64,000 nucleotides of DNA. Source: Nemertoderma westbladi. Lineage: Eukaryota; Animalia; Xenacoelomorpha. How positions within the stretch are numbered: position 1 is the first letter of the stretch; each line of letters starts with the position of its first letter. The position numbers were made by a program, and so were the translations under genes. Under the pieces are notes generated by a model that was not told where the DNA came from, searched no databases, and saw only the letters and a list, made by a program, of their open reading frames with translations. Below, piece by piece: positions 2,921-63,229 of this stretch. The stretch is from contig JAUCBJ010002007.1 of assembly GCA_032718475.1 (NCBI GenBank), positions 58,835 through 122,834 on the forward strand, written 5' to 3'.

Positions 2921-3903
2921 ATGTGGCGCGTTGCAGCCGATGTGGATTTAGATGTACAATCGCGACTTTTCCGTCATCGGTTAGATCCTTTTAGCGATCT
3001 TCGAGATATCGAATTTTACGAACGATACAGGTTCAAAAAAGAAGTTGCGGCAGATTTGTGCGACAGATTCCAGTCGACACTTGAAAGGACGACACAGAGG
3101 TCGGTGCTTTTGCAGCCGCAAATCAAGTTTTTATTAAATCTTAATATTAAAATTTTATAAAATATTTAATAAAATTTTGAAATGTGGGGGAAAGCTGCAA
3201 AACTACTGTAAATTTATAAAGGTCAGAGAGTATGTCTGTAGAAACGCAAATATGCACTGCTCTCCGATATTATGCACATGGTGGTTTCCTTCCTGTTATT
3301 GGTGATATACATGGCATTTCTGATCGCAGTGCCAGTCGTGCAATTCACGCTGTATCATCGGCTATATATGATAGGTACTCCGATTTCATAAAGTGGCCTA
3401 CTTCTGTCGAAATGTCACACAATATGGAACAATATTTCGCATACTCATGTTTCCCCAAGATTGTAGGCGTAGTCGATGGCTGTCATGTCCGTATAGCAAG
3501 TCCTGCGTCTCCATACATTGAATCGGCATTCATAAATCGCAAGCAATTTCATTCAATTAACTGCCACTTTGTCTGCAACCTTAGCTTAGAGCTATTCGAT
3601 GTAAGCACGAAATGGCCTGGATCTACACAAGATGCCTTCATGCTACGTCAATCGCAGAGCTGGGATCGACAGCTCGATTTTGGGGGTGGTTGGTTGTTAG
3701 GTGACTCAGCCTATCCCCTTTCAAGTTGGCTTCTTACACCTTTCGACTATCCGAATGGCAGACCCGAAGAACGTTACAATTTGGCCCATAAACGGGCCAG
3801 GTCGTCTATCGAAAGGTGTAATGGTGCACTGAAAATCAACTTTGCACCGGAGAGGGCATCAAAGATAATAATGGCTTGCGCTTGTCTCCATAATTGGGCT
3901 TGA
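2921..3903 (+). pseudogene. Harbinger DDE transposase (HARBI1/DDE_Tnp_4-like), two exons, probably defective
   Basis: Motifs FYERYRF, ALRYYAHG, GVVDGCHVRI, NRKQFHSIN, WPGSTQDA, LLGDSAYPL, YNLAHKRARSSIER, CACLHN. A GT-AG intron at 3100-3221 joins TTQR|SESMSVETQ in frame. The segment after IERCNGALK looks shortened and the stop follows LHNWA early. Confidence 0.88.
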
Positions 3904-8299: not shown

Positions 8300-8550
8300 G
8301 CTTCATTCAGTCATTCAAGTGAAGTAAAACAAGTAGAAAGTTCAATTTTATTCAGCTGTTAGACCAGCGATTTCCGTACTCATTTAGCTACCATTTAAGG
8401 AAGCAAGGTAGAGATGCGCCGTGGCAGCCCCTTTAATGCATTCGTGCCAAAACGAAAACTGCCCTGCCCCCATGTGGGGATTGAACCCACGACCTCTGGA
8501 GAGATGTGAATTCTGGAATTTAATGCTAGGGATTTAACCACTATGCCAAG
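8300..8550 (-). mobile_element. tRNA-derived SINE
   Basis: Minus strand has A box TGGCATAGTGG (8548-8538) and B box GGTTCAATCCC (8487-8477), followed by a non-tRNA body containing AAATGAGTAC; no clean cloverleaf. Confidence 0.65.
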
Positions 8551-9729
8551 GTGGAACTTAATATCATTGAAAAGCTCACATTATTATTTACACACATCTA
8601 ATTTTAGTTCATGTGCGCGATAGATATTAAATTAAATACAAAATATAAATAAACAAAATAATTTACGGCTACAGGTTATGTCATTATTTAGAATTAGTAA
8701 TGTGTTGAATATTCAAACTTCTGAACTAACCTTTAATATTTTCTTGCTTCAACTACTTTTTCTCCGGTAACACTCTGAATCTGTAGTTCTATATAGTATT
8801 AATAATAAAATATAACATATCATGTAATGATACAATGGGTGTAAAATTGAAACACAAATTGATATCGGCACTGCGGTACTCGTATAGTCTAAATTAATTA
8901 TATATTTTGTAAAACTAAAATAACATTCAATCGTATCAAATAATATAAAATCAAATTATATAGTCAGACAGTCTACCTACTTGTTTTATTTTATTAAAAA
9001 AACATTATTTTACAACGATGGATCGTGTTCGCGGCGAAACCTCTGAATCGCAGAATCTGAGAGTTGTGTCAGTCTATCATCTGCGTTCTGTAGAACCATT
9101 GCCTACGCCGCTAGACAACGTTTTATTTGGTTGATCACTATTTCCATGGTACAGAATAAGTACAAAAGGGATAATTGTCTTGTTGCTATACAGCTATAAT
9201 ATATTGACATTGGTAATTGTTAAGTTGTATTGGATCAAACTGAGTAAAAAAGATCTATCTAATAATTCTGTAGCCTAATGCTATGTATCTATCTAAGAAG
9301 GTTGCAGATGTGGAGGAAATTGTGCGGAATTCTGAAGTAAGGTCTGAATGTTCTGAAAAGGGCTGAATAGTAGAAAAGGCAATAACCAAATTTGTGGGAA
9401 AGTTAATACAGAAGCAGAAAACAGAATGAATCGGAAAGTCTGATAGTTGAGCTTTATATATGGTCTGAATCTGAATTCTGATTGGTTACTCTATTCTGAG
9501 ACATACTGTACAGTATGTCGAATAAATATATTTATTGAAAATGGCATTTCGCCGATGACAGTCCCCCCTCAAATTTATGGCGAACATTTTCGCAATAAAT
9601 TGGATTGAACTACGTGGCGAAATGTTACGACATGTTTATTTTATTTAATTTTAATTCTGTAGGGATATATTATAATTTTTATTTAATTAGGGTGTGTATT
9701 ATTACAAATTCAATCATATTTAATTGAGT

Positions 9730-14300: not shown

Positions 14301-14837
14301 TGTGACGGGATCCAAGAGGGATCCCGATTTATCCGGTGTGGTATTTAGTCCACGCGTCCCCGCCGTGTGTAAGGGTGAAATAAAGATAATTGAGTTCTGA
14401 AGTTCGGTGTATAATAAGAGGTTATAAGATATAGATATATTGTGAATGTGTACAAGGCGGGATACGGTAACTAAAGTCCCGTGATCCCCTAACTAAACTA
14501 ATTGGCTGTACCCTACGCTAGCACTGCTGCACTGAGATAACTGAATCACTGATTAATAGGTTATTGGTTATATTGCACGGTGGCCTTACTGCTACTCAAT
14601 CGATGCCATTCCCCCCTCTGATTGGTTAATACCCTTGTTGGCGCCCCGTGGAGTATTCCCGTTCACTCCACCTGTTCTCCTTGGGTTAGGGGTTTGGCCC
14701 CTGACCCTCTATTGTGTGCTTCCTTCCCACTCTTATTGGGGTGGCGCGAGTGGGTTAATTGCCCAATCTCGTGGCCCCCAATATTGCTTATCGGCTAATA
14801 ACTTTATGGGGTGTTGGCGGGATTGAATAAGCTAACA
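14301..14837 (-). repeat. 3' LTR (537 bp, TGT...ACA)
   Basis: Begins TGTTAGC immediately after the PPT and ends GTCACA; its last 81 bp are identical to 26448-26528. CCAAT, TATA-like (CAATATAAC, ~14570) and TCAGT Inr-like (~14544) motifs lie on the minus strand. Confidence 0.9.
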
Positions 14838-14846
14838 CTCCCCCCC
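14838..14846 (-). promoter_or_regulatory. Polypurine tract
   Basis: GGGGGGGAG directly abutting the TG of the 3' LTR. Confidence 0.85.
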
Positions 14847-15544
14847 ATGCTATCTTCCCGGTAAGAAGATAGCATCAACCAAAAAAGTGCGCTACAATCC
14901 CGCTGGATCCCGATCTAATATCGGGTGTGGGGTGGAATTCTTTTCTCTCGGGGTCGGCTTTCCAGGCCGCCCCCTATGGGTATGATATCGCTACCCTGTG
15001 TGCCTGGCGTCTCATGTCGGGCCGGTCGCGCTCGCCTCCCACGCAACTTTTGTTTCCCCAACATTTTCCCCTATCTCACCTTCACTCTCATCCTAACTCT
15101 CTCATACCCCCGTACCTCCTCGTCCCTTACTCAGCCTCTCATTCTCCCCCCCCCCACACTAGAATTGCGTTCGCACTCTCTCCGCACTTTACACTCTTAT
15201 TCCGGTTCTCAAGTCCACTTTGACTGTTTTATCTCTCCTGACGAACCTCCCCCCCCTCTCGTGCCGCCGCACTCAAGAAGTGTGAAATTGTCAGTTGTCT
15301 CGTCCATAGTGTCATAGTCAATTGTCCCCCAGTCCCAGTAGCTAATTGAGAAAGGTTGTATGACTATAGTACTTACTCCAAACGTATGTATTTTACTGCT
15401 AATCACTACGTACGTACATACAAATTGCACTTATATAGTTATTTGCATTAATTAAATTTATACTTAATAGTTCGTACGTTACATGCGGCGCCTTCCAGGC
15501 GCACCACGTCCCAGTCTCAGTCTCATTCCCTTGCCTCCGGGAAC

Positions 15545-16558
15545 TCATCTGTACCTCCTCACGTCCTCCTCCCTGGCCCGTTTCTTGGTTATCACTGTTC
15601 CTCTGGCATCATCCGCTTTCTGCTTCCGGACCTTCGCTGCCACTTCCTTGCTGATCCCGGTCGTCGGCTCCTTGGGCGCTGGTGTTATTAAAGCCCGATA
15701 CCGCTTCGCCGGTGGCCCCTCAGAATGGCCTGGTTGTTTCCCTCGTGTGGCGTCCCATAGGATCATCTTCATTGCCTTTGGTACGTGTTCCGCCAAGAAA
15801 TCCCTAAACTTCCCCCAATCCATTGGTTTGTGGCATACGAGCCCCAATAATTGGCCCATCGCCACCGCCCCGCATTGGCCTGAGTTCTCGACCACCCCCA
15901 ATCCATCCGGTGCCGTCATAGCCATAAAGACTTTCTGCATATCCAGGAGGTTGGTGGCGTCCGGACCGATGATCCTCTCCGCGTCCTCGCGAATCGCCGA
16001 TCCCACTTTCGTCGTCGACTTCTCTCTTACTAAGACCTGTACCGCTTTCGGCAGTCGGTCTAATTTCGGCCCGTCCTTCTTCCCATACGTCCCTAGGTCG
16101 AATAAGAAGATGTCCCCATTTGGCGCTGCCAAATGCAAGAGTATGGTCCTGGCCGACCCTGCCGTTCCTCGTCTCGAACCCGCTTCGTCTTCCACGGTTC
16201 CCTCGTCATCTAGGATCATATATCCTCCTCTGTTGACGGACTCTATGAATCTTTTCCAGTCCTTCCTCGGCGATTCCCTCGGATACTTCGGAATCCCGAA
16301 CTTCGCCTCGTCTCCTTTCACTACGTAGTGGAAGTGTTGGAAGATCGCGTTGTCCAGCGACGGCGTCCCGTAGGTCCCGACCAACCGCTGTTCGTGCGCC
16401 TCCCGGAAGTGATCCTGCAGCGCTCGTGCCGCGTGACCCCTTTCCAACCTCTCGTAGTATCCTCTCGTCTTCTCCTCCGGGTGTCTTTCGGTGAAATCCA
16501 CCAATATTTCTTTTCCTCCTGACTCCGCTTTTCTCTTCCTGATCAGCTTACTCGCCAT
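15545..16558 (-). CDS. Extra ORF (~337 aa): DEDD-family 3'-5' exonuclease-like (WRN/EXD2/Mut-7/RNase D-like) with basic termini
   Basis: ExoI-like YMILDDEG; LLHLAAPNGDIFLFDL; LPKAVQVLVREKSTTKVGSAIREDAERI (ExoII D); LLDMQ; candidate ExoIII MILWDA. Uninterrupted, GC-rich like pol, and inside the LTR boundaries. Confidence 0.75.
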   Translation of the reverse strand: MASKLIRKRKAESGGKEILVDFTERHPEEKTRGYYERLERGHAARALQDHFREAHEQRLVGTYGTPSLDNAIFQHFHYVVKGDEAKFGIPKYPRESPRKDWKRFIESVNRGGYMILDDEGTVEDEAGSRRGTAGSARTILLHLAAPNGDIFLFDLGTYGKKDGPKLDRLPKAVQVLVREKSTTKVGSAIREDAERIIGPDATNLLDMQKVFMAMTAPDGLGVVENSGQCGAVAMGQLLGLVCHKPMDWGKFRDFLAEHVPKAMKMILWDATRGKQPGHSEGPPAKRYRALITPAPKEPTTGISKEVAAKVRKQKADDARGTVITKKRAREEDVRRYR

Positions 16559-17073
16559 TCCGAACACTACACTCGCTCACCTGTAGGGTGGTGCCTTACC
16601 AAGGCGCAATACAGATGAGTGATGTACTAAGATGTTTCCTACAGTTCGATAATGGCCTACTTTTCTACTTAACTGCGCCTTTCAAGCTTAATTTAATCTA
16701 ATTAATTTCGGAGCTAGTAAATCAGCCTAATTTACAATTTCCCTCCTTTACTTTTATTATGTTCTAGAACGACTTTCCTTGTGTTACCACTATTTTCCGA
16801 TTTTAGCCCTATTCTATTTATTTATTTATTTTGCTTTGATTCTACTGTCCTACTACTTACTACTGCCTATGGATTTATTCTATTCTCTCTCTGATCCATA
16901 TTCTGGCCTACTCAGTGGGCCTATGCAGTACAGCAGTATGCGTCGTGTGGCCACACGATTTATCCAGCTGCACTCATATGCCCCCCTCTCGCTACTAACT
17001 CTACTTACTGCTATCTAATATCTATATCCTATTTTTTACCCCTTTTACCTCTTACTCTCTCTTTCTAACTAAT

Positions 17074-17691
17074 GGTACTACGTACCCTCTAACTCTAACT
17101 CTAACTAGGTACTACGTACCTACTAACTCTCTAACTATCGGTACTACGTACCCTCTAACTCTAACTAGGTACTACGTACCTACTAACTCTAACTCTATCG
17201 GTACTACCTACCCTCTAACTCTAACTCTAACTAGGCATTACGTACCCTCTAACTCTAACTCTAACTAGGTACTACGTACCTACTAACTCTCTAACTATCG
17301 GTACTACGTACCCTCTAACTCTAACTCTAACTAGGTACTACGTACCTACTAACTCTAACTCTATCGGTACTACCTACCCTCTAACTCTAACTCTAACTAG
17401 GCATTATGTACCCTCTAACTCTAACTCTAACTAGGTACTACGTACCTACTAACTCTCTAACTATCGGTACTACGTACCCTCTAACTCTAACTCTAACTAG
17501 GTACTACGTACCTACTAACTCTGACTCTATCGGTACTACCTACCCTCTAACTCTAACTCTAACTAGGCATTACGTACCCTCTAACTCTAACTATCGGTAC
17601 TACGTACCCTCTAACTCTCTAACTAACTCTAGGTACTACGTACCTACTGACTAACTAACTCTAGGTACTACGTACCTACTGACTAACTAAC
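17074..17691. repeat. Tandem array of 19 units (28-36 bp) with hairpin core GGTACTACGTACC and (CTAACT)n linkers; 166-bp higher-order period
   Basis: Cores at 17074, 17108, 17140, 17168, 17200, 17234 ... 17664; the variant core GGCATTA recurs at 17234, 17400 and 17566. Confidence 0.95.
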
Positions 17692-17801
17692 TTTTATTTT
17701 ATTTTTTATTTTATTTTATTTGTGTGGGAAGGGCGTCTCGCCCTCAATCCCACCCCCCTCAGTCCAAAACTTGGACGACTAAACTTCACTCTAACTCCGC
17801 T

Positions 17802-20800
17802 CTAAGGTGCTCCTTCTAAGAGACAGCATTTACCTACCGCTCTCCTGTAGGTTTTTCTGTTCTTCGCACCTATCTTTCCACCTATCCGCACTTCCACCGA
17901 TCGGACTCTTCCGTCCTCGTCGGAGTAGGTGCCTACAACTCTCGCCAACCGCCATTGGTTGTTGATGATAGTATCATCCGTGACGATTACGAGATCTCCC
18001 TCTCTTAACTCCCTGTTTGGCTTCCTCCACTTGCTTCGCTTATGGAGTGTGGGTAGGTATTCTTCCACCCACCTCCTCCAATACTCTGCGCTAATCGCTT
18101 TAGCTACTTTCCAACTTTGGCGGGAGTGTATATCATCTGGGTCTACACCCCGCATATCGATGGTCGCTGGCCTTTCCATTAGAAAATGGCTAGGCGTCAA
18201 CACGTCTAATGACTCAGGGTCATCATTCTCCGGATATAGCGGTCTGCTATTAATGATCCCCTCGCACTTTGCAAGTACTGTCCGTAAGACGTCTTCAGTG
18301 ACCATGTGGGTGTTCATCAGCTTCGTCATTAGACGTTTTGAACTGCCCACTAGTCTCTCGACGCATCCTAATGTATGTGGTGCATACGGCGTCCTTCTCT
18401 CCCACTTCACTTGTCGTCTTCTCATGGCTGCCCTGACTTCTTCTCCCTCCAAGATGTCTAAGGCCTCTGCCATCTCACTCTCTGCGCCCACAAAGTTGGT
18501 GCCGTTGTCGCTGTATATCACTGCGATCGTCCCACCTTTGCGGTCCCTAAACCTTTCTAAGGCGTTAATGAATGCTGATGCGGTTGCATCTTGGGCGAGT
18601 TCTATCCCTACCGCCCGCGTATTGTTGCATACGAAGATAATACCGTAGCGTTTCTCCGTGTGTCGCATCACCTTGATCTTTATCGGCCCGAACATGTCCA
18701 CACCGCAATGCGTAAATGGCGGGTCGTGCTGTCTTACCCTACTCGCCGGTAGTGGCGCCATCTCCTGTACGGCTCGCTCCTTCTTCGCTCGTCGGCAGGT
18801 CTGGCACTGTCCCACTACCGCTTTCACCTTCTTCCTTAATTGTTTGACCCAATAGGTCCTTCTTATCTCCGTGAGGGTTCGGTTGGTGCCCCCATGCAGT
18901 ATCGATTTGTGGGAGTCCCATATGATCTGGTGGACTATAGGCGATCCTGTGGGAATGATGATGGGTTTTGGTGGCACGACTATACTGTTGTTATATCCCA
19001 CCCTAGAATTCATTACTAGGATCCCATCCTCGTTGAGTTGTGGCGACAGCGTTATCAACTCGCTATCCCGTCGGAGATGTTGTTGGTTACCGACACGTTC
19101 CACCTCGTCGCCGTAGTTCTTGCGTTGTTCATAGCGGATCACTGCCTTGGCCGCTCCTTCCAGATCTATGGTTATCCTGGTCTTCTTGTCCTTGCCGACT
19201 CCCGCAAGGAAATTCCCAAAGGCTCTCCAGTACGCCACTAGTTTCTTGGTCTTATACCAACTGGAACTGTAGCTGAGGAGTTTATCCGTCGGGTTGTCGC
19301 ACAGTTCCCTTCCTGGTTGCACGTCCCTAATCTCCCTCACCATCTGGGAGTATATCTCTTCTCCCTCTGAATCTCCCTCTCCTTCTGATACTGGTTCCGA
19401 GCCCGGGTCCACCTTCTTCATCAGCGGCCAGGCCTCTCTATCGCTCAGAAATTGTGGCCCATGTTGCCACAATACTTCCTTCTTCATGAAAGTGTGGCGT
19501 TCCACGCCCCTCGACAGCAAGTCCGCTGGGTTCTCGTCTGTTGGGCAGTAGTGCCACCTTTCCAGTTCTGTGCTCGCCCTTATTTCGTCCACTCTATTCG
19601 CGACGAATATCGGGTATCTCGTCTTTTCGTTGTGTAGCCAACCAAGCACTACCATGGAGTCCGTCCAGTAGTGTGTCTCCACTATGTTGGGAATTGTATC
19701 CACTAGGTAGGCTGTGGCTCTAACTCCTAGTCTCGCGGCTGTCAATTCTAACTTGGGAACAGATGCTGAATCTGGCGGCGTTGACTTAGCTTTGCTAAAG
19801 GCTAGTCTGGGCTTGTGAGGCCCCTCTCGTTGTACTAAATAGAGTGCCGCTCCGTATGCCTCTAACGACGCGTCGGAGAACATATGTAGGTCCAGATTCG
19901 TCATGTTCCCGTCCGGGAAATACACTCGCGGCATGTTGTATGTTCCCATCCTCTCCAAGTCTCCTGTCCATTTGCTCCACTGTTTCTTGATGTCTTCTGG
20001 TACCTCTACGTCCCACTCATCCTTCAACTTGTATACTCTCTTGAGTATCTGTTTCCCCGTGACTAGTAATGGGGATGCTAGGCCTAAGGGATCGTATATC
20101 CTTGCTATATACGATACGTAACCCCTCTTCGTATGGGTGTCTGCGCCCTCCTGGCTCAGCTGATACTTCAGTTCGTCTGTTTCCCTATCCCACACGATTC
20201 CCAAGGCCTTCTGCTGGGATTCCGTTCTCTTAATCGCCATGTCCTGTCCTTTGGTTGTTGTAGGGTTGTCCATGGTCGATTCTGGTTTCTTGTCTTCTAT
20301 TTCCCTGATAAATTCTTCTGAACTGGATTGGAATTTGGTCAGGTTGAAGCCGGATCCTTTCAGGATGTCGCGAACCTCGCGCCCTGTTTCCAGTATCTCC
20401 TCAACCGTATTTCCAGACTCCATGCCGTCGTCTACGTAGAAACCGCGTCTGATCATGTCGACGGCCCTACTGCCATATCTATCTTCCTTGCCCTTTACCG
20501 TGTCTCTCACTGCCATAGTCGTCGTAAATGAGGACGACTTGGCCCCCATATTTTGTACTACCATCTTATACGCTGGTATTACCGGCGGTTCTTCTTCGCC
20601 GTTATACCATAAGAAGCGTTGACTGTCACTATCTTCCTCTGTTACTCGGACTTGGTTGAACATGCCTTCTATGTCACACGTGAAGGCGTGTTTCCCATTC
20701 CTAAATCTAAGTAGTACTTCTATGCCCGAATTGTATATGTTTGGGCCCTCTAGTAGGTAATCGTTTAAGCACTTTCCGTCGGTCTTTGCCGATGCATCGA

Positions 20801-23800
20801 CTACCATCCTAAGTTTACCTTTCTTTGGGTCTAAAGCTACGTGGAGTGGCAGGTAGTATGTCCTGTCCGTGTTCGGTTCGTCGACCGGTAACTCCACGGC
20901 CCATCCTTTCTCGACGTACTTCTTAATGGTTTTGTGAATGTACTCGTTCTTCTCGGGGCTCCGTTGTAGTGTTTGTTTCAGCTTGCGGAGTCTCGTGAGT
21001 ACCATCCCTCTATTATCGGGTAGCGGTATCTTCGGTAGTTTCCATACCATTCCTATTGTATACCGCCCCTCCTCACACGTCATCGATTCCTCCACACTTT
21101 GTAGAGCCTGCTTGTCTTCTACCGAGGTCCCGACCCCGGTCTCTTTCAGTCCCTCGAAGTCCTGTCTGAGCAGTCTTTTAAGCTGCTCCTCTGCTCCCTC
21201 GTCACCCATTTCCTGCATTGTTCCCGCGAACATGCATCCTGATGTCTCCGACATCCTGAATGGTATCTTGCTCTTAATTGGACCACTCAGCGTCCACCCG
21301 AATGGCGTTAATATGGCCACCGGGTCGCTCTGCTTGTCTTCGCCGAAGACCGTTTGCATTCTCTCGTGGGCTGTTGGGCAGTCCATGCCTACTATGATGG
21401 ATACCTTCCTAACGTCCACGTCTGGGATTGAGAAGTCAATGTTATCCAGGAATTTGTATTGCTCGACCTCGATGTTGGTTGGCCGCCTGGCATTGATGTT
21501 AATTGACTCTATTACTTGGATGGGGTCGATGGTTGCCCCATAATCGCATCCTGGTGCCACTGCTGCAATTGCGCACCGTCCTGTCCTCATCTCTAGGATC
21601 TCGTCTTTGCTAGAGATGGTTGTCACCGCCATCCTGCTTGGCCTCGTTCTCAACCCTATTTCTTCGGCTACCCATTCCTCAACTAATGTGAAGGCAGCTC
21701 CACTATCAACCAGCATTAGTGTTGTTACTGATCGATTGCCTTCCCCGATCACTCGTACTGGTACTACTCCAAGTAGCACTGTTCCTCTCTTCTTCGCCCC
21801 TACTGTGCTCGTTGCCATCGTCTGGCCTCTCCTTTGGCCAAACTTGACCGGTTTCTCTTGGCATTCCCTGGCCTTGTGTCCACTTTTCACACATCGCGAG
21901 CAGATTTTATTGCTCGACGCGTAATCTATCTGGTCTTGCCTCGGTAGCGCCTGCCAGTACCTGCAGTTCATGGTTTTATGAAGCGCATTTGCGTGTAACT
22001 GGCATTTGCTCTTTGGGTCATAGCCCTCTTTATACAATGCATTGCGTATCGCAGTTATATTCGTACCAAAGTCCCTACTATTCTTATTGACTGGGTTTGA
22101 CCTACTGGACGTACTGGGGTTATGTTTATTCATGTTGTTATTGTTCCCCTGTCCGTCCCTTGATGTTGTCTTATCTTCGCTTGTCTGTGGACTTGCAGTC
22201 CCCTGCGTCGCTGCATATGGCAATGATTGCCTGAGTCTCGGTAGCGCGTTCGATGTATTGTGCTCTGGTTTGGGCCTGTAGTGATCTGTCTTTGGTCCCT
22301 TTCCCAGGCTATCTTCACTATAGACTGGGTCCGTTATTAGTTCAGCCTCGTAATTTAAGAAGTTTGACATTTCTTCTAAACCTGGTTCCGCACCCTTCTT
22401 GTCTCGGGTGGAGAAAGCAACCTTCCTCCATTTGTTGCGCAGCCAGCTCGGTAGTGCCTGCGCTATCGTGGTGATGTTATTGGACGCGTTGAGTTCGTAT
22501 GGCGCGTCTAACGTCTTCAGTACGATCAGCGCCTTCTCGACTTTGTTAGCAAACGTCTTAATGCTAACGGGATTATCCTGTAGGCCACCCGATGTTATGC
22601 CTCTCAGCGTTTGCCTGATGATCTTGGCCGGGTGCCCGTATTCCCTATCCAGTGCCCGCCATGCTGTCGTGAAGCCGCCCTCTATTCCTTGGTATTGCCT
22701 CACGATGTCGTATGCTGGGCCTCCCGTGTACACTTGTAGATACTTTAGGCACTCCGCCTGCGTCAAGTTTTTTGTTAGTATTTCGTTACTATACATTCGC
22801 CGAAACTGTAAGTATTCTTCCGGCCTGCTCCCATCGAATTTGAACGGTTCCACGGGTGGTAATTCGATCCTCGTTTTCAACGCATCGATCAACGTGGCCA
22901 TCCCCATTGCCTGCGCTTCTAATGGATTCGACGGGTGCTGTATAGTTTCCCTTGTCTGGTGCGGTTCGTCCGTCCTACTTCTTGATCTTCTCTGACTCGG
23001 ATATGTCATCGGGGGTAGCGGCCCCCTCCATATGTCTGTATCACACGACCTGTTTTCATCTAGGGGTCTCGTTGTTCTTGTTCCTGTCGGGGTATATTGT
23101 TGATATTGTGATGGGGGAATGTCACCCTGTCCCCCCCCCACCGGTATGTCTGGTACTGGGGTTGATGTTAATATGTTGGGGCCCATACACCTATCCGCAA
23201 TAATTCCCCCCTCCCCTGGGTATATGTTATGTCCCTGCATGCTGTAGTCATACTGCTGTGTTGGTACCGGTATAGGCCTATCAGCTTCTGGCCTACCCGC
23301 CGGTATGTATTCCGCGACTCCCGGGTTTAATCCCGTTGTCCGCGCTATCCTATCGCCTACATCGCCTCTCTCAGTATGGCCTACGGTATGTGCAGTAAGA
23401 CCTACAGTATGCCCTACAGTCTGCATGTGTTGCTCGGGATCGAAGTTTATTCTTCTCGAATAATCCTCCCTGCGGCTACCGTATTCTCGATCGGTAGGTA
23501 TATTCCGTCGGAAAGTTTCTCTTCGACCCCCTTTTCCACCGTTTTCATCTTCGTACCGGTACATCGCGTACCCCTCTCTCGGCGCGTAATGCGTCTCATC
23601 GGATCGCATCCCTCCGGGGCGACGGCAATCTCCCGGAGTCCGACCCCACTGACTCTCCGTTCTCATCTCGACTACCGACGGCTCGCTGTCCATCCTCGCT
23701 CTTCCATCTTTTGCGGCGATACTTCTACTACTTTCTTCCTCTCTTCTCCTATCAGTGGAATATTCCCACTCACGAGATCTCTCGTCGACCTCCCGGTTAA

Positions 23801-24059
23801 ACCCCACTGTTCTTCTTTCCTCCTCTGATCGGGCTCGACGCTCCGTCTGCCCTCCCGCGACGTCAACCTGTCCTTCTCTGCTCGATCGCACGTCGCTGGG
23901 GATACTCGCAGTCCCCCTATTACTCTCCGTCGCCGGTTGTTGCGGTTTACCTTGTTCGGCCCTCGCATTGTCCGCTGACGGCTGTGGGACACTCTCTGCC
24001 CCCCCCCCCCTCTCGCCGCTAACTTTCTGTTGTGGGGTGCTCGTAGCCCCCCCCCCCAC
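17802..24059 (-). CDS. BEL/Pao Gag-Pol polyprotein (capsid DUF1759-like, Zn knuckles, aspartic protease, RT, RNase H, integrase, DUF5641-like)
   Basis: FKFDGS; CSRCVKSGHKAREC; LVDSGA; YLPLH, DIEGMFNQV, FYVDDG; HMFSDAS, PKLEL, WTDS, NPADLLSRG; H..LHGG...CQTC, VDMFGP, SDNGTNF, CVERLV; WVEEYLPTLHKRSKW. 2085 codons without a stop. Confidence 0.97.
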   Translation of the reverse strand: MGGGATSTPQQKVSGERGGGAESVPQPSADNARAEQGKPQQPATESNRGTASIPSDVRSSREGQVDVAGGQTERRARSEEERRTVGFNREVDERSREWEYSTDRRREEESSRSIAAKDGRARMDSEPSVVEMRTESQWGRTPGDCRRPGGMRSDETHYAPREGYAMYRYEDENGGKGGRRETFRRNIPTDREYGSRREDYSRRINFDPEQHMQTVGHTVGLTAHTVGHTERGDVGDRIARTTGLNPGVAEYIPAGRPEADRPIPVPTQQYDYSMQGHNIYPGEGGIIADRCMGPNILTSTPVPDIPVGGGQGDIPPSQYQQYTPTGTRTTRPLDENRSCDTDIWRGPLPPMTYPSQRRSRSRTDEPHQTRETIQHPSNPLEAQAMGMATLIDALKTRIELPPVEPFKFDGSRPEEYLQFRRMYSNEILTKNLTQAECLKYLQVYTGGPAYDIVRQYQGIEGGFTTAWRALDREYGHPAKIIRQTLRGITSGGLQDNPVSIKTFANKVEKALIVLKTLDAPYELNASNNITTIAQALPSWLRNKWRKVAFSTRDKKGAEPGLEEMSNFLNYEAELITDPVYSEDSLGKGPKTDHYRPKPEHNTSNALPRLRQSLPYAATQGTASPQTSEDKTTSRDGQGNNNNMNKHNPSTSSRSNPVNKNSRDFGTNITAIRNALYKEGYDPKSKCQLHANALHKTMNCRYWQALPRQDQIDYASSNKICSRCVKSGHKARECQEKPVKFGQRRGQTMATSTVGAKKRGTVLLGVVPVRVIGEGNRSVTTLMLVDSGAAFTLVEEWVAEEIGLRTRPSRMAVTTISSKDEILEMRTGRCAIAAVAPGCDYGATIDPIQVIESININARRPTNIEVEQYKFLDNIDFSIPDVDVRKVSIIVGMDCPTAHERMQTVFGEDKQSDPVAILTPFGWTLSGPIKSKIPFRMSETSGCMFAGTMQEMGDEGAEEQLKRLLRQDFEGLKETGVGTSVEDKQALQSVEESMTCEEGRYTIGMVWKLPKIPLPDNRGMVLTRLRKLKQTLQRSPEKNEYIHKTIKKYVEKGWAVELPVDEPNTDRTYYLPLHVALDPKKGKLRMVVDASAKTDGKCLNDYLLEGPNIYNSGIEVLLRFRNGKHAFTCDIEGMFNQVRVTEEDSDSQRFLWYNGEEEPPVIPAYKMVVQNMGAKSSSFTTTMAVRDTVKGKEDRYGSRAVDMIRRGFYVDDGMESGNTVEEILETGREVRDILKGSGFNLTKFQSSSEEFIREIEDKKPESTMDNPTTTKGQDMAIKRTESQQKALGIVWDRETDELKYQLSQEGADTHTKRGYVSYIARIYDPLGLASPLLVTGKQILKRVYKLKDEWDVEVPEDIKKQWSKWTGDLERMGTYNMPRVYFPDGNMTNLDLHMFSDASLEAYGAALYLVQREGPHKPRLAFSKAKSTPPDSASVPKLELTAARLGVRATAYLVDTIPNIVETHYWTDSMVVLGWLHNEKTRYPIFVANRVDEIRASTELERWHYCPTDENPADLLSRGVERHTFMKKEVLWQHGPQFLSDREAWPLMKKVDPGSEPVSEGEGDSEGEEIYSQMVREIRDVQPGRELCDNPTDKLLSYSSSWYKTKKLVAYWRAFGNFLAGVGKDKKTRITIDLEGAAKAVIRYEQRKNYGDEVERVGNQQHLRRDSELITLSPQLNEDGILVMNSRVGYNNSIVVPPKPIIIPTGSPIVHQIIWDSHKSILHGGTNRTLTEIRRTYWVKQLRKKVKAVVGQCQTCRRAKKERAVQEMAPLPASRVRQHDPPFTHCGVDMFGPIKIKVMRHTEKRYGIIFVCNNTRAVGIELAQDATASAFINALERFRDRKGGTIAVIYSDNGTNFVGAESEMAEALDILEGEEVRAAMRRRQVKWERRTPYAPHTLGCVERLVGSSKRLMTKLMNTHMVTEDVLRTVLAKCEGIINSRPLYPENDDPESLDVLTPSHFLMERPATIDMRGVDPDDIHSRQSWKVAKAISAEYWRRWVEEYLPTLHKRSKWRKPNRELREGDLVIVTDDTIINNQWRLARVVGTYSDEDGRVRSVEVRIGGKIGAKNRKTYRRAVGKCCLLEGAP

Positions 24060-24699
24060 TCGCTACATCTAACTTCGCTACCTCTCTCCCCGCTATTATA
24101 TACCTCTCTAGTCGACACATCAACCCTACCACGGTCGGGTCTGTTCACCCCCGCCTCTCCCTCTGCTATTGCGTGGCCTTCCAGGCCCTCTACTCCCTGC
24201 CTACCAACTACGCGGCCTACCAGGCCCTCTGCTCCCTGTCTACTAACTACGTGGCCTACCAGGCCCTCTGCTCCCTGGTTACGTAGGCCCGACGTGTCTA
24301 CACTAATAGCACCCATATTGGAAACGGAATTAGTTTGCTCATTTGAAACAAAATCATTTGTATTATTCTGCGCGACTACGTTATCTGAATTATTTTGTAA
24401 ATTCGGGCTAAGATCATTATTTGAATTATTCGAATTATTCTGTGTAATTGCGTTATTTAAGTTATTTTGTAGGTCCGAATTCGAGTTATTATTTTGATTA
24501 TTTGAATTATTTTGCGTAACTACATCAATATTAGGATTATTTTCTACATTAACACTGGGATCGTTCTGATTTAAATTTAAATTACTACCACCAGGCAAAG
24601 TATTTCCTGTAATAAAGGTTTGATTAGCGTTATCCCATACGGTACTATTAATATCAACGACGTCTACTGTACCATTATTATTATTATTACCCCCCCCCC
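23999..24699 (-). CDS. Asn-rich middle segment of the Gag N-terminal extension, bounded by G-homopolymer frameshifts
   Basis: Open frame (part of ORF 23672-24715) between the C10 run at 24690-24699 and the C11/C12 runs at 24047-24057 and 23999-24010; QNNSNN repeats and GAEGLVG repeats. Confidence 0.6.
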
Positions 24700-26331
24700 G
24701 CTCGTACGGTCGCACCAGTCTTGAGTCTGTCGTGCGGTCCCTGTCAGTGGAGTATTAACAAATACATCTACGGCCCTCGGCTCCTCAAAAATACTCGAGC
24801 CGGCCCCAGTTCCAGACGGCGGTCCCACTCGCACGTATTCCAACTCGTGCGTCCCTCTAATTATATTTTTCGCATACTCACTCTGCCGTTCCTTTAATTC
24901 CTTGCGCTCCTTTTCACTCTCTGCCACTATCCCCTCACGCTCCTGGGTGTCCTTGGTGGCCGAGTCTGCGGCACTCTTAATGCTCTCCCTTCGTCTCGCC
25001 CCACGCTCTTTACGTTCCTTTTCCTTTCTCGCCTCACGCTCCTTGCGTTCCTTTTCCATTCCCGCCTCACGTTCCTTGCGTTCCTTTTCCATTCTCGCCT
25101 CACGTTCCTTGCGTTCCGCCTCACGCTCCTTGCGTTCCTTTTCTTCTCTCGCTTCACGCTCCTTGCGTTCCTTTTCCATTCTCGCCTCACGCTCCTCGTG
25201 TTCCTTTTCCTCTCTCGCTTCACGCTCCCTACACTCCCTTTCCTCCATCTCATCGTACTCCCTTAGGCTTTTCAAAACCCTTTCGGCCCTTTCTCCGGTT
25301 TCTCTAAGCAATACCGTTTCCCTCTCTAACCGCACTCTTCCCTCCTCTAGCCGTTCCTTCATTTCTCTCTGACCTTGCTCTGCCATGCTGAGACGGTATG
25401 TGGCTCCTATTTTTCTCACCGCTCTTTCTTTCGCGGAGGATGTAGCAGACTTATCGGTTACGACGGACTTCCCCCGCCTTCCCGACCTACTAACTTTCTC
25501 CCCCTTTCCGGAGCTTTCTCCGACCGAGGAGGCCGAATCCTCGGTGTTAACCTCGGATTCGCCCTCTTCGGGTCCCTTCCAACCCACTGGTTTCACTCCC
25601 CGGGCATCGACCAAGTATGGCCCTATGTACACTGACGCTACGCTAGGTTCCATACTCCCACACTCCCATAGTTCAAACAGTTCGCCTGCTATCCTTTCTG
25701 CTCTCTCCCCGGCCAGTTCTCTCTGCCCAAAACGTATTAGGTAATTTAAGTGTTTATCCGACTCACCTAGTCGCTTTCTCAGTCTTACCTCGTCTACCTT
25801 CGCCCCTTCCTTCTTGGCGTCGTTTATCAGCTTCCGGGACGCGTTGTAGGCCCGTCGAAGTCGCTCAGAAACCCCGACGTCCTCGTCGCCGACCTCTCCT
25901 CCGTCCCTCCGGGTTCGACGTCGTACCGGCGGCTCCACCGTCGCCGTTCCGGTGGGCCGTCCGTCGCCCTTGGCCTGTAGCTGGCCGGCGACATCGGTAC
26001 CGATCTCTCCTCCGTCTCTTCGTGTCCGGCGTCGCACCGTCGGCCCCACCGTCGCCGTTTCGGTGGGCCGCCCGTCGCCCTCGGCCGGTAGCTGGCCGGC
26101 GACATCGGCGCGCCGTTCTCCCTCTCCCGTCGACTCGTCTCCATCTCCCTCCATCTCGCTCTCTTTCTCTCTTGGTTCGACTTCGGGTTCCAGGCCCTCC
26201 TCGTCCTGGACTTCCGGTTCGCCCGTTATCGATGGCTCCGTATCGATGGGCCTGTATCGCTTAGTCGCGGCCTCGCGGATCGTTTGATCTTCGTCCGGGG
26301 TCCGCGTCGGTGTCTCGCCCGATTCACTCAT
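24664..26331 (-). CDS. N-terminal Gag extension: acidic region, 37-aa duplication and E/R/K coiled-coil repeat
   Basis: First ATG (26331) lies 116 bp downstream of the LTR end; ~555 open codons; 11-aa repeats EREAR(E/M)EKERK at ~24990-25230; 111-bp duplication (25981/26092). Confidence 0.8.
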   Translation of the reverse strand: MSESGETPTRTPDEDQTIREAATKRYRPIDTEPSITGEPEVQDEEGLEPEVEPREKESEMEGDGDESTGEGERRADVAGQLPAEGDGRPTETATVGPTVRRRTRRDGGEIGTDVAGQLQAKGDGRPTGTATVEPPVRRRTRRDGGEVGDEDVGVSERLRRAYNASRKLINDAKKEGAKVDEVRLRKRLGESDKHLNYLIRFGQRELAGERAERIAGELFELWECGSMEPSVASVYIGPYLVDARGVKPVGWKGPEEGESEVNTEDSASSVGESSGKGEKVSRSGRRGKSVVTDKSATSSAKERAVRKIGATYRLSMAEQGQREMKERLEEGRVRLERETVLLRETGERAERVLKSLREYDEMEERECREREAREEKEHEEREARMEKERKEREAREEKERKEREAERKEREARMEKERKEREAGMEKERKEREARKEKERKERGARRRESIKSAADSATKDTQEREGIVAESEKERKELKERQSEYAKNIIRGTHELEYVRVGPPSGTGAGSSIFEEPRAVDVFVNTPLTGTARQTQDWCDRTSGGGVIIIIMVQ

Positions 26332-26447
26332 CTCGTCTGCTCGGTGGAGTTCGACTAGCAAGCAGTGTAGTTCTCAGAGTTTAACTAGGGCGGCAGCTCG
26401 GTTTTAGTTACTGAGTTTAGCTGGGGAAGCAACACCGATTTAGTTAC

Positions 26448-26528
26448 TGTGACGGGATCCAAGAGGGATCCCGATTTATCCGGTGTGGTATTTAGTCCAC
26501 GCGTCCCCGCCGTGTGTAAGGGTGAAAT
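26448..26528 (-). repeat. 5' LTR remnant (U5 end only, 81 bp)
   Basis: 81/81 identical to 14301-14381; similarity stops abruptly. Confidence 0.95.
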
Positions 26529-27230
26529 TTCTTCGTCTGAATGACCTGTGTCTTCGTTAGGTTTTGTGTAAGCGTAAGGTTCTGAAAATAGAATATTAAT
26601 ACGAGCTTGCATGTCAGGATTTAATAATTTTAAGTCCTCAAAAGCAATGCTTTCATTTATTTCAGCCATTTCCATTAGAGAAATACGTTTTTTAGCCTCT
26701 AATTGCTCGTTAATTTCAGATTCTTTTGCTTCCAAATCACATTGTGATTGTATTAATTTACGTTCATTGCTAGCTTTAAGGAATTTTAAAATTGCATTAT
26801 TCTGAAGCTGATTTGGCTGAACGGCTTGCTGGGTAAGAATATTAATGGCCACTGGTAGATTTACCAGACGATTTACGGTTACATTTACCTGAAGATTTAC
26901 TTATAATGGAAGCAGAATTTGTTAAAGTATGTGTTGGTAAAATACTTTGACTAGAAATTTTCTTTAAAGTTTCTAAATCGAAATTTCTAATGAATTTAAG
27001 TTTGGGTTCTCTACATTTCTTTCAGTATTGAAAGAATGCCTAGATTTAGGTCTAGATACAGAGATTTCAGCCATACCTTTATTACCAAAACTTTGGTTTG
27101 ATCCCACCTGTATCTGAGATTACACTTCCACTAGAATTGATTAACAATCCCGGCGTTCCAGTAACCGTTGGGTCCAGCCAGATCCAATCGTTCCATCAGT
27201 CGACCTTAACATGTCACGTCCCTGCATTAA
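26529..27230 (-). pseudogene. Older degraded coding-like sequence (possibly gag of another LTR element) that was the insertion target; continues below 14300
   Basis: Coiled-coil-like peptide ending ...GHSDEE joins EHLPSFGSFPF* across the shared AGAA; no diagnostic domain seen. Confidence 0.35.
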
Positions 27231-31732: not shown

Positions 31733-32812
31733 GGGGGGGGGGGGGGGGTAGCGCATTCAAAGACGAATTTTTGAAACATATCCTATATATGGAAACATAT
31801 GGAAACCGTTTTCCCATATCTTACTTAGTTTTCGAGATATCTGGGGTAGAAGATACTGGCTCTGATATATTGGTAAAGGCGATGAAGTTTGGGGTTTATA
31901 TTCAATTTCTGCAAATTTCTTAGCTCAGTGGTGCCAATTGGATGTCTCTACGAGAAAGAGCACAATATTTTAATTGAGAAGGTATTTTTTTATGATTATT
32001 GGACCTACTGATCAGTTTATAAGACAACTTCAAGTCTCCAGAATGAAGACGGGACTCGAATAAGTGACTCTGTGGCTTTGTGGGATTACACAAAATAGAC
32101 TTATCAGTCATTGGAGATCTTCAAAATGTATAATCTCCAGTTCTAGTGGTCGTACGAAGTTTGTTTTAGTCTCATTCGAAAGCTCTTTTCTTAGAGAACA
32201 AAGTTACCATTTTATTTAAGATAAAATGGTTGTGAAGCAATATAACATGAATTTGGGTAAAATATGCCATGCAAATTTTGTTCAAGTTATGATTGCTCAG
32301 GCATCTTTCAAGAGTTTGCTAAACCAAATGGTAACTTTGGTCTCTGAGAAAAGAGCTTTCGAATGAGCCCAAAACGAACTTCGTATGACCACTAGAACTG
32401 GAGATTATACATTTTGAAGATCTCCAATGACCGATAAGTCTATTCCGTATAATCCCGCAAAGACAGCACACTCGCTTATTCGAGTCCCATCTTTATTCCA
32501 GAGACTTGAAGTTGTCTTATAAACTGATCAGTAGGTCCAATAATCTTTAAAAATATAGCTTCTCAATTAAAATTATGTGCTCTTTCTCGTGGAGACATCC
32601 TATTGGCACCACTGAGCACAGAAATTGAATGCAAAGCGCATTTACCGATATAGCGATATATCGGAGCTAGTATTTTCTATCTCAGATATCTCGAGAACTA
32701 AGCAAGATATGGGAAAACCGTTTCTATATTTTAATTCATGTTTCAAAAATTTCGAAAATTCGTTCGACTTTTTGGTCAGAAAATGTGCTACCCCCCCCCC
32801 CCCCCCCCCCCC
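31733..32812. mobile_element. Fold-back non-autonomous Kolobok-like element
   Basis: TTAA|G-run-TAGCGCATT ... AATGTGCTA-C-run|TAA; additional ~300-bp inverted arms at 31914-32212 / 32326-32626. Confidence 0.75.
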
Positions 32813-32815
32813 TAA

Positions 32816-35800
32816 CCCTATCGATCCCGAATTAATTTCTGTGGTAAATAAAATTATTTTTTTGTCAAAATACCTTAATTGGGATACAAATGAACTAGTA
32901 AGATGAAAATTAAATAATGTTCATATTATCTTCATTCAGTTTAGAGACATTCCATATATGGTACAACGGGATCTTGGGGTAAATTTATTTAAATTAAAAA
33001 ATTCGTGAAAAATGCATTTCCTTGTTTAATTAATAATAAAAATATTGAAATATTGATAACAATATAACAATTACTAGATTCTATGCCTGTTGTTGGTTCG
33101 TTGGTATGTGTGTGTATTATTTTTTAGTTCACCTAATTCAATGTATTAGGCAATAATTCACATAATCAATAATCATACCAGAGTTCAATAATACAGTTCA
33201 ATCATACCCTAAACAATGGTAGTCTAGAAAGCAGTTTCGATCCGGTCGTATACACAGGAAGATAGAGCATTTAAGGCATGATATCTGTGATTTCATGCCG
33301 CAGTGACGGCAGCGCTGTCGATCAGATACTGGGACCATCCCAGGGAAATGGGCAATTAGATCATGCCGTATATCCATGGCAGGAGAAGGGGCATGGTGAC
33401 GTGGAGTTGACACTCTATCAGTCTCAAATACCACAAACGCCCCCGAAACACTTGGTGCTGGACTAGAGGTAGCAGAGTCTCCTCCTGGACGGCCTCGCTT
33501 CCTCACCAGCGATGGCGGCATCTTATCGAGGAAAAGCGAAGATGTTGATATGGCTTCTGTAAATGACAACAAATCTATTTTTTTGGATTTCAACAAACGG
33601 GTTGTGCCGTTCTTTGCGTCCTTCTTATAATGCAACCATGCATTTACTGTTGCTACATTTAGTGTCCACAAGAAGACTCTTCTATACCATTTCGTACACT
33701 TATGGTCACATACATATAGTGATCTCAACATATCGCAGAGATCCACGCCTCCCATCCTCGAGTTATACTCTTTTACAATCACTGGTTGACCAACAGTAAC
33801 TTTCTTATTTTCGGCCTTTGACCATCTCTGAATCTCTTCTACTGGCTCTAAGGCCACATGGGTCGATGATAACTGCACCATTCGATTGTCTAACCAACGA
33901 ACAATCACAAGACCTGAATTTCGATCTATCTTTGTTGAGGTTGAACCATGCCCACCCCACATTTCATTAAATCAGCTTCACTTTCTAAGTTGCAACCACG
34001 GATCCGATCCTTCCTAGAGTTCCAACTGAATTGAACCCCATACTCTTGAATTGATTGAAGTTCTGGGAAGTTGAAATAATTATCAAAGTACACCAAGTAG
34101 TTACAATTATTAGGAACAGATTCCAGGAGTTTTATCACATAATCACCAGTTTGAAAGCCACAGGATTTGTCTACTTCAACATGACCTACATATATAAAAA
34201 AGTCGTGCATAAACCCAGATATACTGTTGCGACTATAAACTTTGATGCCCCACTGTTTTGGTTTATTTGGTAAATATTGACGCAGAATGGTACGCCCCTT
34301 GAATGGAATCATTTGTTCGTCGATCGATATGAATTCCACAGTTGTAAACAAAATACAAGCCTCTCGAAGAAGATCTAGAAGGGGAAGAATCTTGGCTATC
34401 CTGTCATAGCCAGCATCCCGTGGATTCGTAATTATCGTAGTATTATCTCGAAAATGTAGAAAGCGATTGACATCAAAAAAACGATTTCGAGACATGTGGT
34501 CGGCAATACCGGGGATACGAAATCCATCTTCCCAGTACATTCTGTACCGTGGAAGTCGATATATACCCATACGCAACAACAAAGCTAAGTAAGTTTCTAT
34601 TTCTATTGTAATTGTTCAAAACTAGAACCCTGCTGCACAGATAATATATTTGTTTGTTCTACAATGAGATTAATCATTTCCCTTGAGAAGTATAAAGTAA
34701 AGTAGTCGATTGGGTCCAAAACTTTGTCTGGTATGGTATAAGATACCCCCTTCCATTCTCCTTTAGGTAATTCCTTTCTGGTATCTAAATCCACCCAAGA
34801 AAATTTATCGTTTTTAGAAGGCTTCTTAGTTATCTTTCCAGTCCTCTTACGACCTGTTTTGCTCTTAGACCCTGTCACCTTAGACCCAGTCGCTTTAGGA
34901 TTCATTTTGGCCTTAGATCATGTACTGATCTTTGATAAGACTATACAACTGTCATCACTATTGGAGTCCATATTACAACTTAATTGCCCAGTATCTCTAA
35001 CATTATGATCCTGGTCGTGCCCCTGGAAACCATGAAAATCCGGAAAATTGTCATCACTGTCACAACCACTTAAAGGACCGGAATCGCTAACACTATCACT
35101 AAGGCCAGGACAGTCAAACCCCTCGAAACCCTGAAAATCGCCATCCTCTGAGAATATTTCTGGATCGGAATCATCCGCATCTGGGAGAACAACTAACTGA
35201 GTTTCACTTCTTCCATTTCCTTTGGGACGAATAATAATGTCTCCATCCATAGGCATATTGCTGTATTGTTACGCTACACTGTACCGGTATATCTGCCCAA
35301 CCAGAGAGCAACACCCTACAGCGTGGGTGTAGGTAGGCCTATCTCCAATATTACTATAGGCCTACCTAACTGATGAAATAGATAGCTCTGTAAAACATAC
35401 CGGTCAGTACCAGCAAATGGCGGTGTACCAAGATAGGCCTATCATCTATCAGACATCATTGTTGAATGTTCGTTACACTACACAGTCCGGCGCCCGAGCT
35501 AACTAGGTACTAGGCCATTTACCATCCTACTGTACTTAATTGCTGAATATTACAGTAACACAGAATGGCAATACTGCAATATAGTGCTGTAGAGCAGTAG
35601 TTTAAAAAAATCTAATCATACTGTACATGCCCGGTGGCCCATATATGCCCACCTGTTTAAACTAATCAGCTCATTCAGTGATTTGGTAATGGCCTATTGT
35701 TATTGGTTGGAAATGTTAGTGGAGATGTCAGCCAATTTGCTCATATTTTTTTCAAGAGGTGTACCGTCCATTGTAGTGATTGGGAACTGTCAATATTTCA

Positions 35801-48293: not shown

Positions 48294-49020
48294 CTACGGC
48301 TGTGAAGGTAGGCCGGCCCCATCCTCCTGTCCCAGGCCGCTGCGCCACTTGGTGCGCCACCCGCGCAGGCAGTGGGAGGTCCCACGGATAACCGCAAACA
48401 GTACTTGCGAGTGTACCCAACCCATGACGGACGAGTAAGGCTTACCCCACGAGCGGTGCAATCTGTCCACGATTATCCGCAGGAATCTGTTCGCCTGCGG
48501 GGCCAACACACCATCGCAGGAAACCACGAAAGGCGAGAAGTCTCTACGACAAGCGGTTACTGCGGCTAAATAAAGCCGTTTCTTCTCGTCTTCCGCGGAT
48601 TCCAACATGGACATGGAGGCGCGGTTAACGTACGACCCGGCGTCAAGTTTGGTTGATCGAATACCAAACAACGCCTGAGCCTGTATGTTAAACGCGCCCC
48701 ACACCCCCACGTCACACCGCAGCCCAGCCACGTCTCCCCCCTCCAGCTGCTCCCGCACCACGGGCTCCAACTTGGCATTGCGTGGCCCGAACGCGAGCGC
48801 AGCGAGATCGCCAAAGGTGTCCTGCAATTCGTTGGGACGTTGGATCACGAGGCCGCCCTTCTTGCAGTTCAACCCATGGTTCAGGTCGAACGCAGCCCCA
48901 CACCCATCACAACGGCTCAGCACTCCCAGGAGGGGTCTACCGTACCGCACTGCCAGACCGTCACGGAACTCCTGTGGAGACAGGTCGTAATGGTGTTCAG
49001 TCAGTGGGAGATTCGACGTC
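48294..49020 (-). pseudogene. 3' portion of a CRE-type non-LTR retrotransposon (Zn knuckle + restriction-like endonuclease)
   Basis: LSPQEFRDGLAVRYG, CDGC...H..NCKKGG, LRCDV, AEDEKKRLY, FSPFVVSCDG, IRGTSHCLRG. Confidence 0.88.
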
Positions 49021-49759
49021 CAGCTGCCGGTTTTAAACTTAGTTTTAAACTTTTAAACCAACGGCTCTATTTTGGGGAGCCAAGGTAATTATGTTTTATA
49101 TATAAAAGGAGCCCACTCCTTTGGAAATAAGCTGCAAAGCTTTAGGGGTAATCCTATATGTTATGTTGGTATATACCTATACAATGTTTGGTGTATTTGT
49201 TGGGGGTTTGTACATAATATATAAATAAATCTATCTATCTATATCTGAAGAGAAACTTAATGACGATGAGTTATATCAATCTGTGACTGAATATTATGCT
49301 TCTACTGGTTTCCATACACTAAGGTTTTATATATGGAGTTCCCCTTTGTGAATCATAGCACTGAACTGAATGATAATAATACTTATTTCTAATACAGGTA
49401 CTGTTAGTCCAAGTAATGCTGATAATAATTATATCGCTGGCGAAATTCCTATTGCTGTGGAAAACTCTGGCAGCAATAACGTTATTGAAGTTCCTACACT
49501 TGATGTTGTTGATTCGAGATATGTACTTCGCCCTCGAACCACTGTAAGAGCACCACATAGATTTGGATATTATGATAGTGGTAGCGATGCCATTGAAGAA
49601 GGTGAAGGAGAAGTTTATGAGTTCAGTTCCAGTACCGCAAACACATGACTATTTTATTAATATATTTCCCAACATTAAATCCATTATGGATATCTACGTA
49701 AGTAAATAAGGCTACTGTGCTGTCTGTGATGAGCCTGCTGTCATTGGCAATCCCAAACG

Positions 49760-63209: not shown

Positions 63210-63229
63210 ATCCCGATTCCCTAGAAGCG

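Follow-up and report, generated by a model that had tools for sequence, protein, structure and literature searches.

Introduction

What does the third gene of a retrotransposon do when it does not look like an envelope gene? The question is raised by a locus of Nemertoderma westbladi (Xenacoelomorpha), in a stretch of 64,000 nucleotides called the window here. Few LTR elements have a third gene that encodes an enzyme. The third genes listed for Belpaoviridae are env-like only, priming is by tRNA-Arg or tRNA-Gly, and elements measure 4.2–10 kb (PMC8742986); env-like third genes of BEL/Pao also appear in passages of PMC554778 and, for Atlas virus, PMC9094657. DEDDy ORF3s have been reported in bdelloid Juno/Vesta LTR retrotransposons and in Athena/Terminon, with activity not demonstrated according to passages of PMC5408684 and PMC6431247. 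The role of such retrotransposon nucleases has been an open question since 2017 (passages of PMC5408684). An initial annotation of the window proposed that a BEL/Pao element carries a WRN/EXD2-like 3'-5' exonuclease at the place of env, and its mention of DEDDy accessory ORFs in rotifer retroelements agrees with passages of PMC5408684.

Results

The host element

Copies of the element were viewed through contigs of four of seven public runs (X1, X3, X5 and X6) aligned to the window; contig depth was rejected as a measure of copy number. The element comprises:

17802..24062, minus strand: BEL/Pao gag-pol main ORF, 2086 codons (Pfam domains and motifs)
23672..26373, minus strand: two upstream gag-like frames (24754-23672 and 26373-24664), Asn-rich and with coiled-coil repeats
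17064..17692: tandem array in the spacer between pol and ORF3, periods 32-34/66/100/166 bp
14301..15063, minus strand: probable 3' LTR, 763 bp, TG...CA, alternative starts 15141 or 14837
26448..26528, minus strand: 5' LTR remnant, its last 81 bp, 100% identical to 14301-14381, the rest missing

The main ORF contains DUF1759, a zf-CCHC knuckle, a DSGA protease, a YVDD RT (RVT_1), Peptidase_A17 RNase H (Pfam match 7.5e-40 to Peptidase_A17), integrase (rve) and DUF5641, in this order. This is the Gag-PR-RT-RH-IN order with Pao-type domains of BEL/Pao (Belpaoviridae), and the integrase is 32–43% identical to those of 80 related BEL/Pao loci from metagenomes. BEL relatives were absent from the viral contigs searched. 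The gag-like extension at 23672–26373 is very long, holds 33-bp and 111-bp repeats and an Asn-rich stretch, and is covered by contigs as part of the multi-copy family. Its frame changes are close to G runs of 10–12 nt (24699, 24057 and 24010) and may reflect errors of assembly.

Contigs of a flanking host repeat end precisely at 14300 in three runs, and contig depth beyond 26576 drops to tens. Together with the repeat pair, these two limits place the end of the 3' LTR at 14301 and indicate that the 5' LTR is truncated. The 81-bp repeat was rejected as a whole LTR and represents only the 3'-most part of the truncated copy. Candidate LTR starts, taken as a purine tract followed by TG, are plausible at 15141, 15063 and 14837, and 15063 is favoured because one X3 contig joins 15068 directly to 17787. 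With its purine tract and a length of about 763 bp, its start being uncertain, the 3' LTR corresponds to the 0.2–1.2 kb flanking LTRs with PPT of the family; sites resembling a TATA box (14572) and an initiator (14544) lie within it. Even with its 5' LTR truncated and a stretch missing from ORF3, the element is 12.2 kb long. A coiled-coil-like frame of 171 codons at 26385–26900 (minus strand), in low-depth DNA, reads through the LTR remnant. It possibly belongs to another element, or marks a deletion in which the flank and the greater part of the 5' LTR were lost.

Position and general features of ORF3

15545..16558, minus strand: ORF3 (P0001), 337 aa, ATG at 16558, stop at 15545, frame open throughout
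Layout of ORF3: N-terminus of about 95 aa, basic and helical; DEDDy-like domain at about aa 96-250; C-terminus basic and of low complexity

ORF3 lies on the same strand as pol (24062–17802) and starts after a spacer of 1243 nt from the pol stop; some 480 nt separate its end from 15063, the favoured start of the PPT/3' LTR. It is internal to the element under each candidate LTR start (15141, 15063 and 14837), so the placement between pol and the 3' LTR given in the initial annotation holds. The GC3 of ORF3 (0.67) resembles that of the element (0.57–0.60) rather than that of another ORF of the window (0.33).

Basic, nuclear localization signal-like stretches, which had been claimed for the ends, were found at aa 7, 283 and 325. 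The claim that ORF3 has no obvious signal peptide or TM segment was also upheld: the highest 19-aa window of the hydropathy scan scored 1.07. Hydropathy and sequence scans found none of the env traits sought, namely signal peptide, TM anchor, glycosylation and Cys pattern. With no TM segment, no N-glycosylation site and only two Cys, an env protein was rejected for ORF3.

A DEDDy-like domain in ORF3

16199..16216, minus strand: ExoI-like ILDDEG (D117, E119), aligned to the invariant D-x-E of 46 references
15980..16009, minus strand: ExoII-like KVG...IREDA (D192), from custom profile and alignment

The motif series read by eye in the initial annotation is present, at aa 115, 140, 169, 184, 189, 204 and 265. 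Standard searches were blank. Pfam, which had been suggested as a check for the exonuclease domain, gave no family for ORF3 at E values up to 1, below the gathering cut-off. Relatives were absent from NCBIfam, PHROGs and PDB sequences, from protein sets of 5.8 billion and 1.84 billion sequences, and from the viral, metagenome and genome contigs searched, homologue searches among proteins of near and shorter length were blank as well, and the best E values in plasmid and phage searches were only 8 and 4. The sole match among representative proteins, P0002, was rejected as a tandem-repeat artefact.

Five custom HMMs were built from bacterial PF01612 proteins: mixed (58 sequences), WRN-like, NrnC, RNase D and PolA. 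The mixed DEDDy profile matched aa 100–196 with 9.2 bits (P=3.4e-5), a score reached by none of 2000 shuffles; of the 745 natural ORFs, ORF3 scored best, with E=0.026. The WRN-like profile gave P=0.0027 (3/2000 shuffles), and the other three profiles, NrnC, RNase D and PolA, gave no match. Comparison with DEDDy by hhalign gave P=0.0013 (0/60 shuffles) and extended the alignment to K244/W248, with hhalign probabilities of only 18% and 1.5%. The motif series thus exceeds chance. In an alignment of 47 rows (ORF3 and 46 reference DEDDy proteins), the invariant columns include those of D117, E119, D192, K244, W248 and D269. ORF3 therefore has the ExoI D-x-E of PF01612 (D117, E119) and its ExoII Asp after a KVG strand (D192).

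Searches of the ESM Atlas, taken as leads only, gave a WRN-like PF01612 cluster at 0.88, with the family on 38% of its members; the ten best named matches all share one family or clan. Scores were below 0.9, and shared features numbered 142–149, whereas true members of a family typically share 170. Three unnamed clusters at 0.88–0.89 are mostly basidiomycete; these top clusters hold unnamed proteins of 213–214 aa, commonest in Basidiomycota. An unguided single-sequence AlphaFold model of ORF3 reached pLDDT 35. Guided by the DEDDy alignment, pLDDT rose to 74, with 85–91 around ExoI/ExoII and 53–74 after aa 212. The guided model matches EXD2/WRN/RNase D with Z up to 13 and rmsd of about 3, a circular comparison that speaks for compatibility only. 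Overall, ORF3 very probably has a DEDDy fold.

ExoIII and the junction

15749..15766, minus strand: MILWDA, proposed ExoIII, poor fit
15801..15810: junction at codons 250-253, just after W248, with extra sequence in other copies

In PF01612 proteins ExoIII is Y-x-x-x-D, 16 residues past the conserved Trp, and the window copy lacks this arrangement. MILWDA, which had been offered as the candidate ExoIII, did not stand as a canonical one: the distance from the conserved Trp to the ExoIII Asp is 21 residues in ORF3 against 16 in all 46 references, the Tyr shared by 46/46 references is a Met here, and D269 is not followed by an amphipathic helix.

Contigs of all four runs (X1, X3, X5 and X6) break off on one or both sides of the junction, after 15810 and before 15801–15807, and continue with extra sequence. 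The ten bases at 15801–15810 are common to both flanks of the break, which lies right after W248, where ExoIII is expected to begin. Unaligned contig sequence at the junction amounts to 320 letters in one X5 contig and to 217 on the other side in one X6 contig; other copies probably have more than 290 nt extra here. None of the 28 pieces listed, a list that leaves aside 3530 further pieces, bridged the junction. The frame of the ORF described as intact is open, but the idea that the window copy encodes the complete protein is not supported, given the extra sequence of other copies. In the simplest reading the window copy is probably a deletion derivative, in which short direct repeats flanked a lost segment of probably more than 290 nt. 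The alternative, that the extra stretch is a nested insertion of later date with 10 bp of duplicated target, was judged less likely because contigs with the stretch range from about 82% to 100% identity and carry two organism labels. On balance we would expect ExoIII to lie within the stretch missing from the window copy, which would leave this copy inactive. The proposal of a WRN/RNase D-type exonuclease in the env position is supported for the domain (custom profile, hhalign and the ESM lead) but not for ExoIII or for the completeness of the copy.

In some runs there are more loose ends inside ORF3, at 15562, 15775, 15889, 16098 and 16254, and one X3 contig skips 15998–16176. The additional loose ends point to diverged subfamilies or alternative ends.

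Other copies of the element

ORF3 is part of a multi-copy element family. It was covered in 30/30 bins by 2115 contigs of X1 and 1410 contigs of X3 (two of the four runs), with identity down to about 76–80% in some contigs. The contig alignments listed no indel at a share of at least 10% inside ORF3, and hence no common frameshift. Substitutions were taken from the 40 best-supported of 139 differences, of which six outside ORF3 were dropped. Among the 34 listed inside it, 25 are synonymous, nine nonsynonymous and none a stop, against 30% synonymous expected (p=3e-7). All seven listed in codons 236–321 and 18 of the 27 in codons 3–75 are synonymous; none falls in codons 76–235, and 27/34 come from one or two X5 contigs. 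This synonymous excess, which is not a dN/dS value, indicates that ORF3 would be under purifying selection. The X3 contig joining 15068 to 17787 is a copy without ORF3, and therefore ORF3-less copies exist. The expectation that ORF3 persists in other copies is supported by the coverage of 30/30 bins and the synonymous excess, but it does not extend to every copy.

Among the 80 metagenome BEL/Pao loci, 34 of which reach at least 1500 nt past pol, none had an ORF related to ORF3 by tblastn, phmmer or custom HMM, and PF01612 was not found in the 23 of 39 ORFs downstream of pol that were scanned with Pfam. Two other BEL/Pao loci have sense ORFs after pol, L015:5397-6293 (+, 299 aa) and L042:5973-7082 (+, 370 aa). 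Neither has a Pfam match or similarity to ORF3, and they are possible uncharacterised third ORFs.

The leader

26377..26447, minus strand: leader, no TGG-type primer-binding site, two 36-bp units

No TGG occurs in the 200 nt past the 5' LTR, and the element lacks the 18-nt PBS complementary to tRNA-Arg or tRNA-Gly of BEL/Pao. Since the family is delimited by RT phylogeny, the absence of a tRNA-type PBS marks a variant and not an exclusion from BEL/Pao. Those of the 80 related loci that were long enough were scanned for TGGT(C/T)C; 25 gave a repeat pair, and the motif adjoined it in 19 of these 25, 14 of the 19 coming from one assembly.

Immediately past the 5' LTR, the first 9 nt of the leader (26447–26439), with which the 36-bp units begin, are complementary to 14475–14467 in the LTR, some 65 nt further downstream than the initiator-like site at 14544. 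This match, noticed post hoc, was found in 43 of 20000 shuffles, and the best leader-LTR duplex energy was equalled by 3/100 shuffles. The complement hints at a putative self-priming signal.

Other features of the window

An 833-codon ORF at 40695–43196 (minus) has no convincing Pfam match and may be a DNA transposase, which it resembles by eye. DNA transposon pieces lie among 33198–34615 (minus), 56427–57269 (minus) and 3220–3903 (+), with DDE_Tnp_1_7 in two frames, DDE_1 (Pfam) and a piece that looks Harbinger-like by eye. The C-terminal part of a second BEL-like integrase and two fragments resembling non-LTR retrotransposons were recognized by eye among 63199–63717 (+), 48294–49052 (minus) and 54141–54644 (minus). 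The window also contains a long foldback inverted repeat (31794–32732), a 68-bp tandem array (58145–59192) and a predicted tRNA-Leu(TAA) (8466–8554).

Discussion

In the preferred reading, a BEL/Pao family would encode as a separate third gene a divergent WRN/RNase D-type (DEDDy) 3'-5' exonuclease. An RNase D-like domain is said to have been drawn in nematode Cer7-group elements by Malik et al. in 2000. ORF3 shares with cellular WRN/EXD2/Mut-7/RNase D proteins (PF01612) the order and spacing of ExoI, strand hairpin, ExoII and K...W, but its identity to them is 14–22%, below Pfam detection, it has extra basic N- and C-terminal regions, and the window copy is without a canonical ExoIII.

DEDDy ORF3s in LTR elements are already published for bdelloid Juno/Vesta, and what would be new here is the BEL/Pao setting. 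As described in passages of PMC5408684, the ORF3 of Juno, Vesta and Athena likewise follows pol as an ORF of its own, occupies the env position, is RNase D/WRN-like, lacks TM or coiled-coil env traits, and occurs in only some branches. The rotifer elements differ in being gypsy-like or Penelope-like by description, with dUTPase and a DEED motif, whereas the window element is BEL/Pao. ORF3 would be a second capture of a DEDDy gene, in a different LTR superfamily and apparently independent of the rotifer one. The element resembles Belpaoviridae in pol domain order, Pfam signature, TG...CA LTR, PPT and a further gene downstream of pol, ahead of the 3' LTR. It differs in that this gene is not env-like, in its size above 10 kb and in lacking a PBS of the tRNA-Arg/Gly type. 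The word "exonuclease" did not occur in term counts and passages of PMC3118150, PMC554778, PMC13524379 and PMC9094657. No exonuclease ORF was found described for BEL/Pao in the open-access literature searched. According to passages of PMC3706591, Dada DNA transposons of Laccaria and Ectocarpus carry a WRN-like DEDDy domain whose KVG and K...W motifs (Fig. S1) are similar by eye to those of ORF3. Dada differs in being a DNA transposon, with the domain inside its DDE transposase and all four catalytic residues present. The basidiomycete ESM clusters and the basidiomycete Dada domain (passages of PMC3706591) hint at a mobile-element pool of such nucleases.

The absence of a tRNA-type PBS suggests primer trimming as a job for the nuclease. 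The full-length protein would trim nucleic-acid 3' ends during reverse transcription of the element, most likely those of the primer. The element would prime from its own RNA or from some other RNA of a non-standard kind. Pairing of this RNA with the leader over 9 nt would leave a 3' tail unpaired; the nuclease would remove this tail, and RT could then extend at the LTR edge. To be expressed, ORF3 would require an internal promoter or an RNA that is spliced or subgenomic. Passages of PMC4600332 and PMC6317226 describe self-priming in Tf1/Sushi, Tcn1 and TAR elements and name no BEL/Pao case. The Tf1-type mechanism primes from the 5' end of the transcript (passages of PMC4600332), whereas the complement here lies about 65 nt past the initiator-like site. 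The parts of this proposal differ in strength. Judged from sequence, full-length copies of ORF3 may be catalytically active, which we favour slightly, and we give even weight to an accessory nuclease that acts on the element's own nucleic-acid ends. A non-tRNA primer with an unpaired tail removed by the nuclease is the most speculative step and is tentative, with the balance against it. The whole scenario, in which a BEL/Pao lineage gave up tRNA priming for self-priming and, by an independent capture, gained a WRN-like exonuclease to trim the primer 3' end, is quite unlikely to hold in full.

ORF3 could instead counter host silencing, as a DEDDy-fold protein that degrades or mis-trims the 3' ends of piRNA or siRNA. 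Mut-7/Nibbler and EXD1 are in the fold group closest to it, contigs of this multi-copy family number in the thousands, and a silencing role is raised in passages of PMC5408684. We consider this role unlikely: copies without ORF3 exist, and rotifer DEDDy ORFs have no clear link to copy number in those passages. It is also conceivable, if rather unlikely, that ORF3 retains the DEDDy fold without catalysis and binds RNA as an adaptor, as EXD1 or Egalitarian do, serving RNA packaging or transport, with MILWDA as a degenerate ExoIII following a large insertion. Its basic termini, the missing Tyr, the shifted spacing and the lack of an amphipathic helix after D269 in the window copy would fit such an adaptor, as would the inactive DEDD derivatives of the piRNA pathway mentioned in passages of PMC5408684. 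However, three of the four acidic positions are kept (D117, E119, D192), and the missing stretch explains the poor ExoIII equally easily.

A chance motif match in an unrelated accessory or env-like protein is improbable: every standard search was blank and the unguided fold had pLDDT 35, but no shuffle and none of the 744 other ORFs equalled the mixed profile score, the independent ESM lead agrees, and ORF3 shows neither a TM segment nor glycosylation sites nor a Cys pattern. Least probable is proofreading of RT products to uphold a genome of unusual length, about 13 kb, in the manner of nidovirus ExoN, because, although the 12.2 kb of the element exceed the 4.2–10 kb of its family, ORF3 is separate from RT with no fusion, copies diverge freely (to about 76–80% identity), and ExoN belongs to a different DEDD lineage.

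The preferred reading thus remains a DEDDy accessory nuclease that would act on the ends of the element's own nucleic acids. The missing tRNA primer site yields a specific hypothesis for its role, and a family of many copies that shows signs of purifying selection and includes natural ORF3-less and deletion copies provides material for a comparative test of that role. If the proposal is true, it would give retrotransposon DEDDy accessory genes a first concrete job, and the element would be the first self-priming BEL/Pao element in the literature searched.
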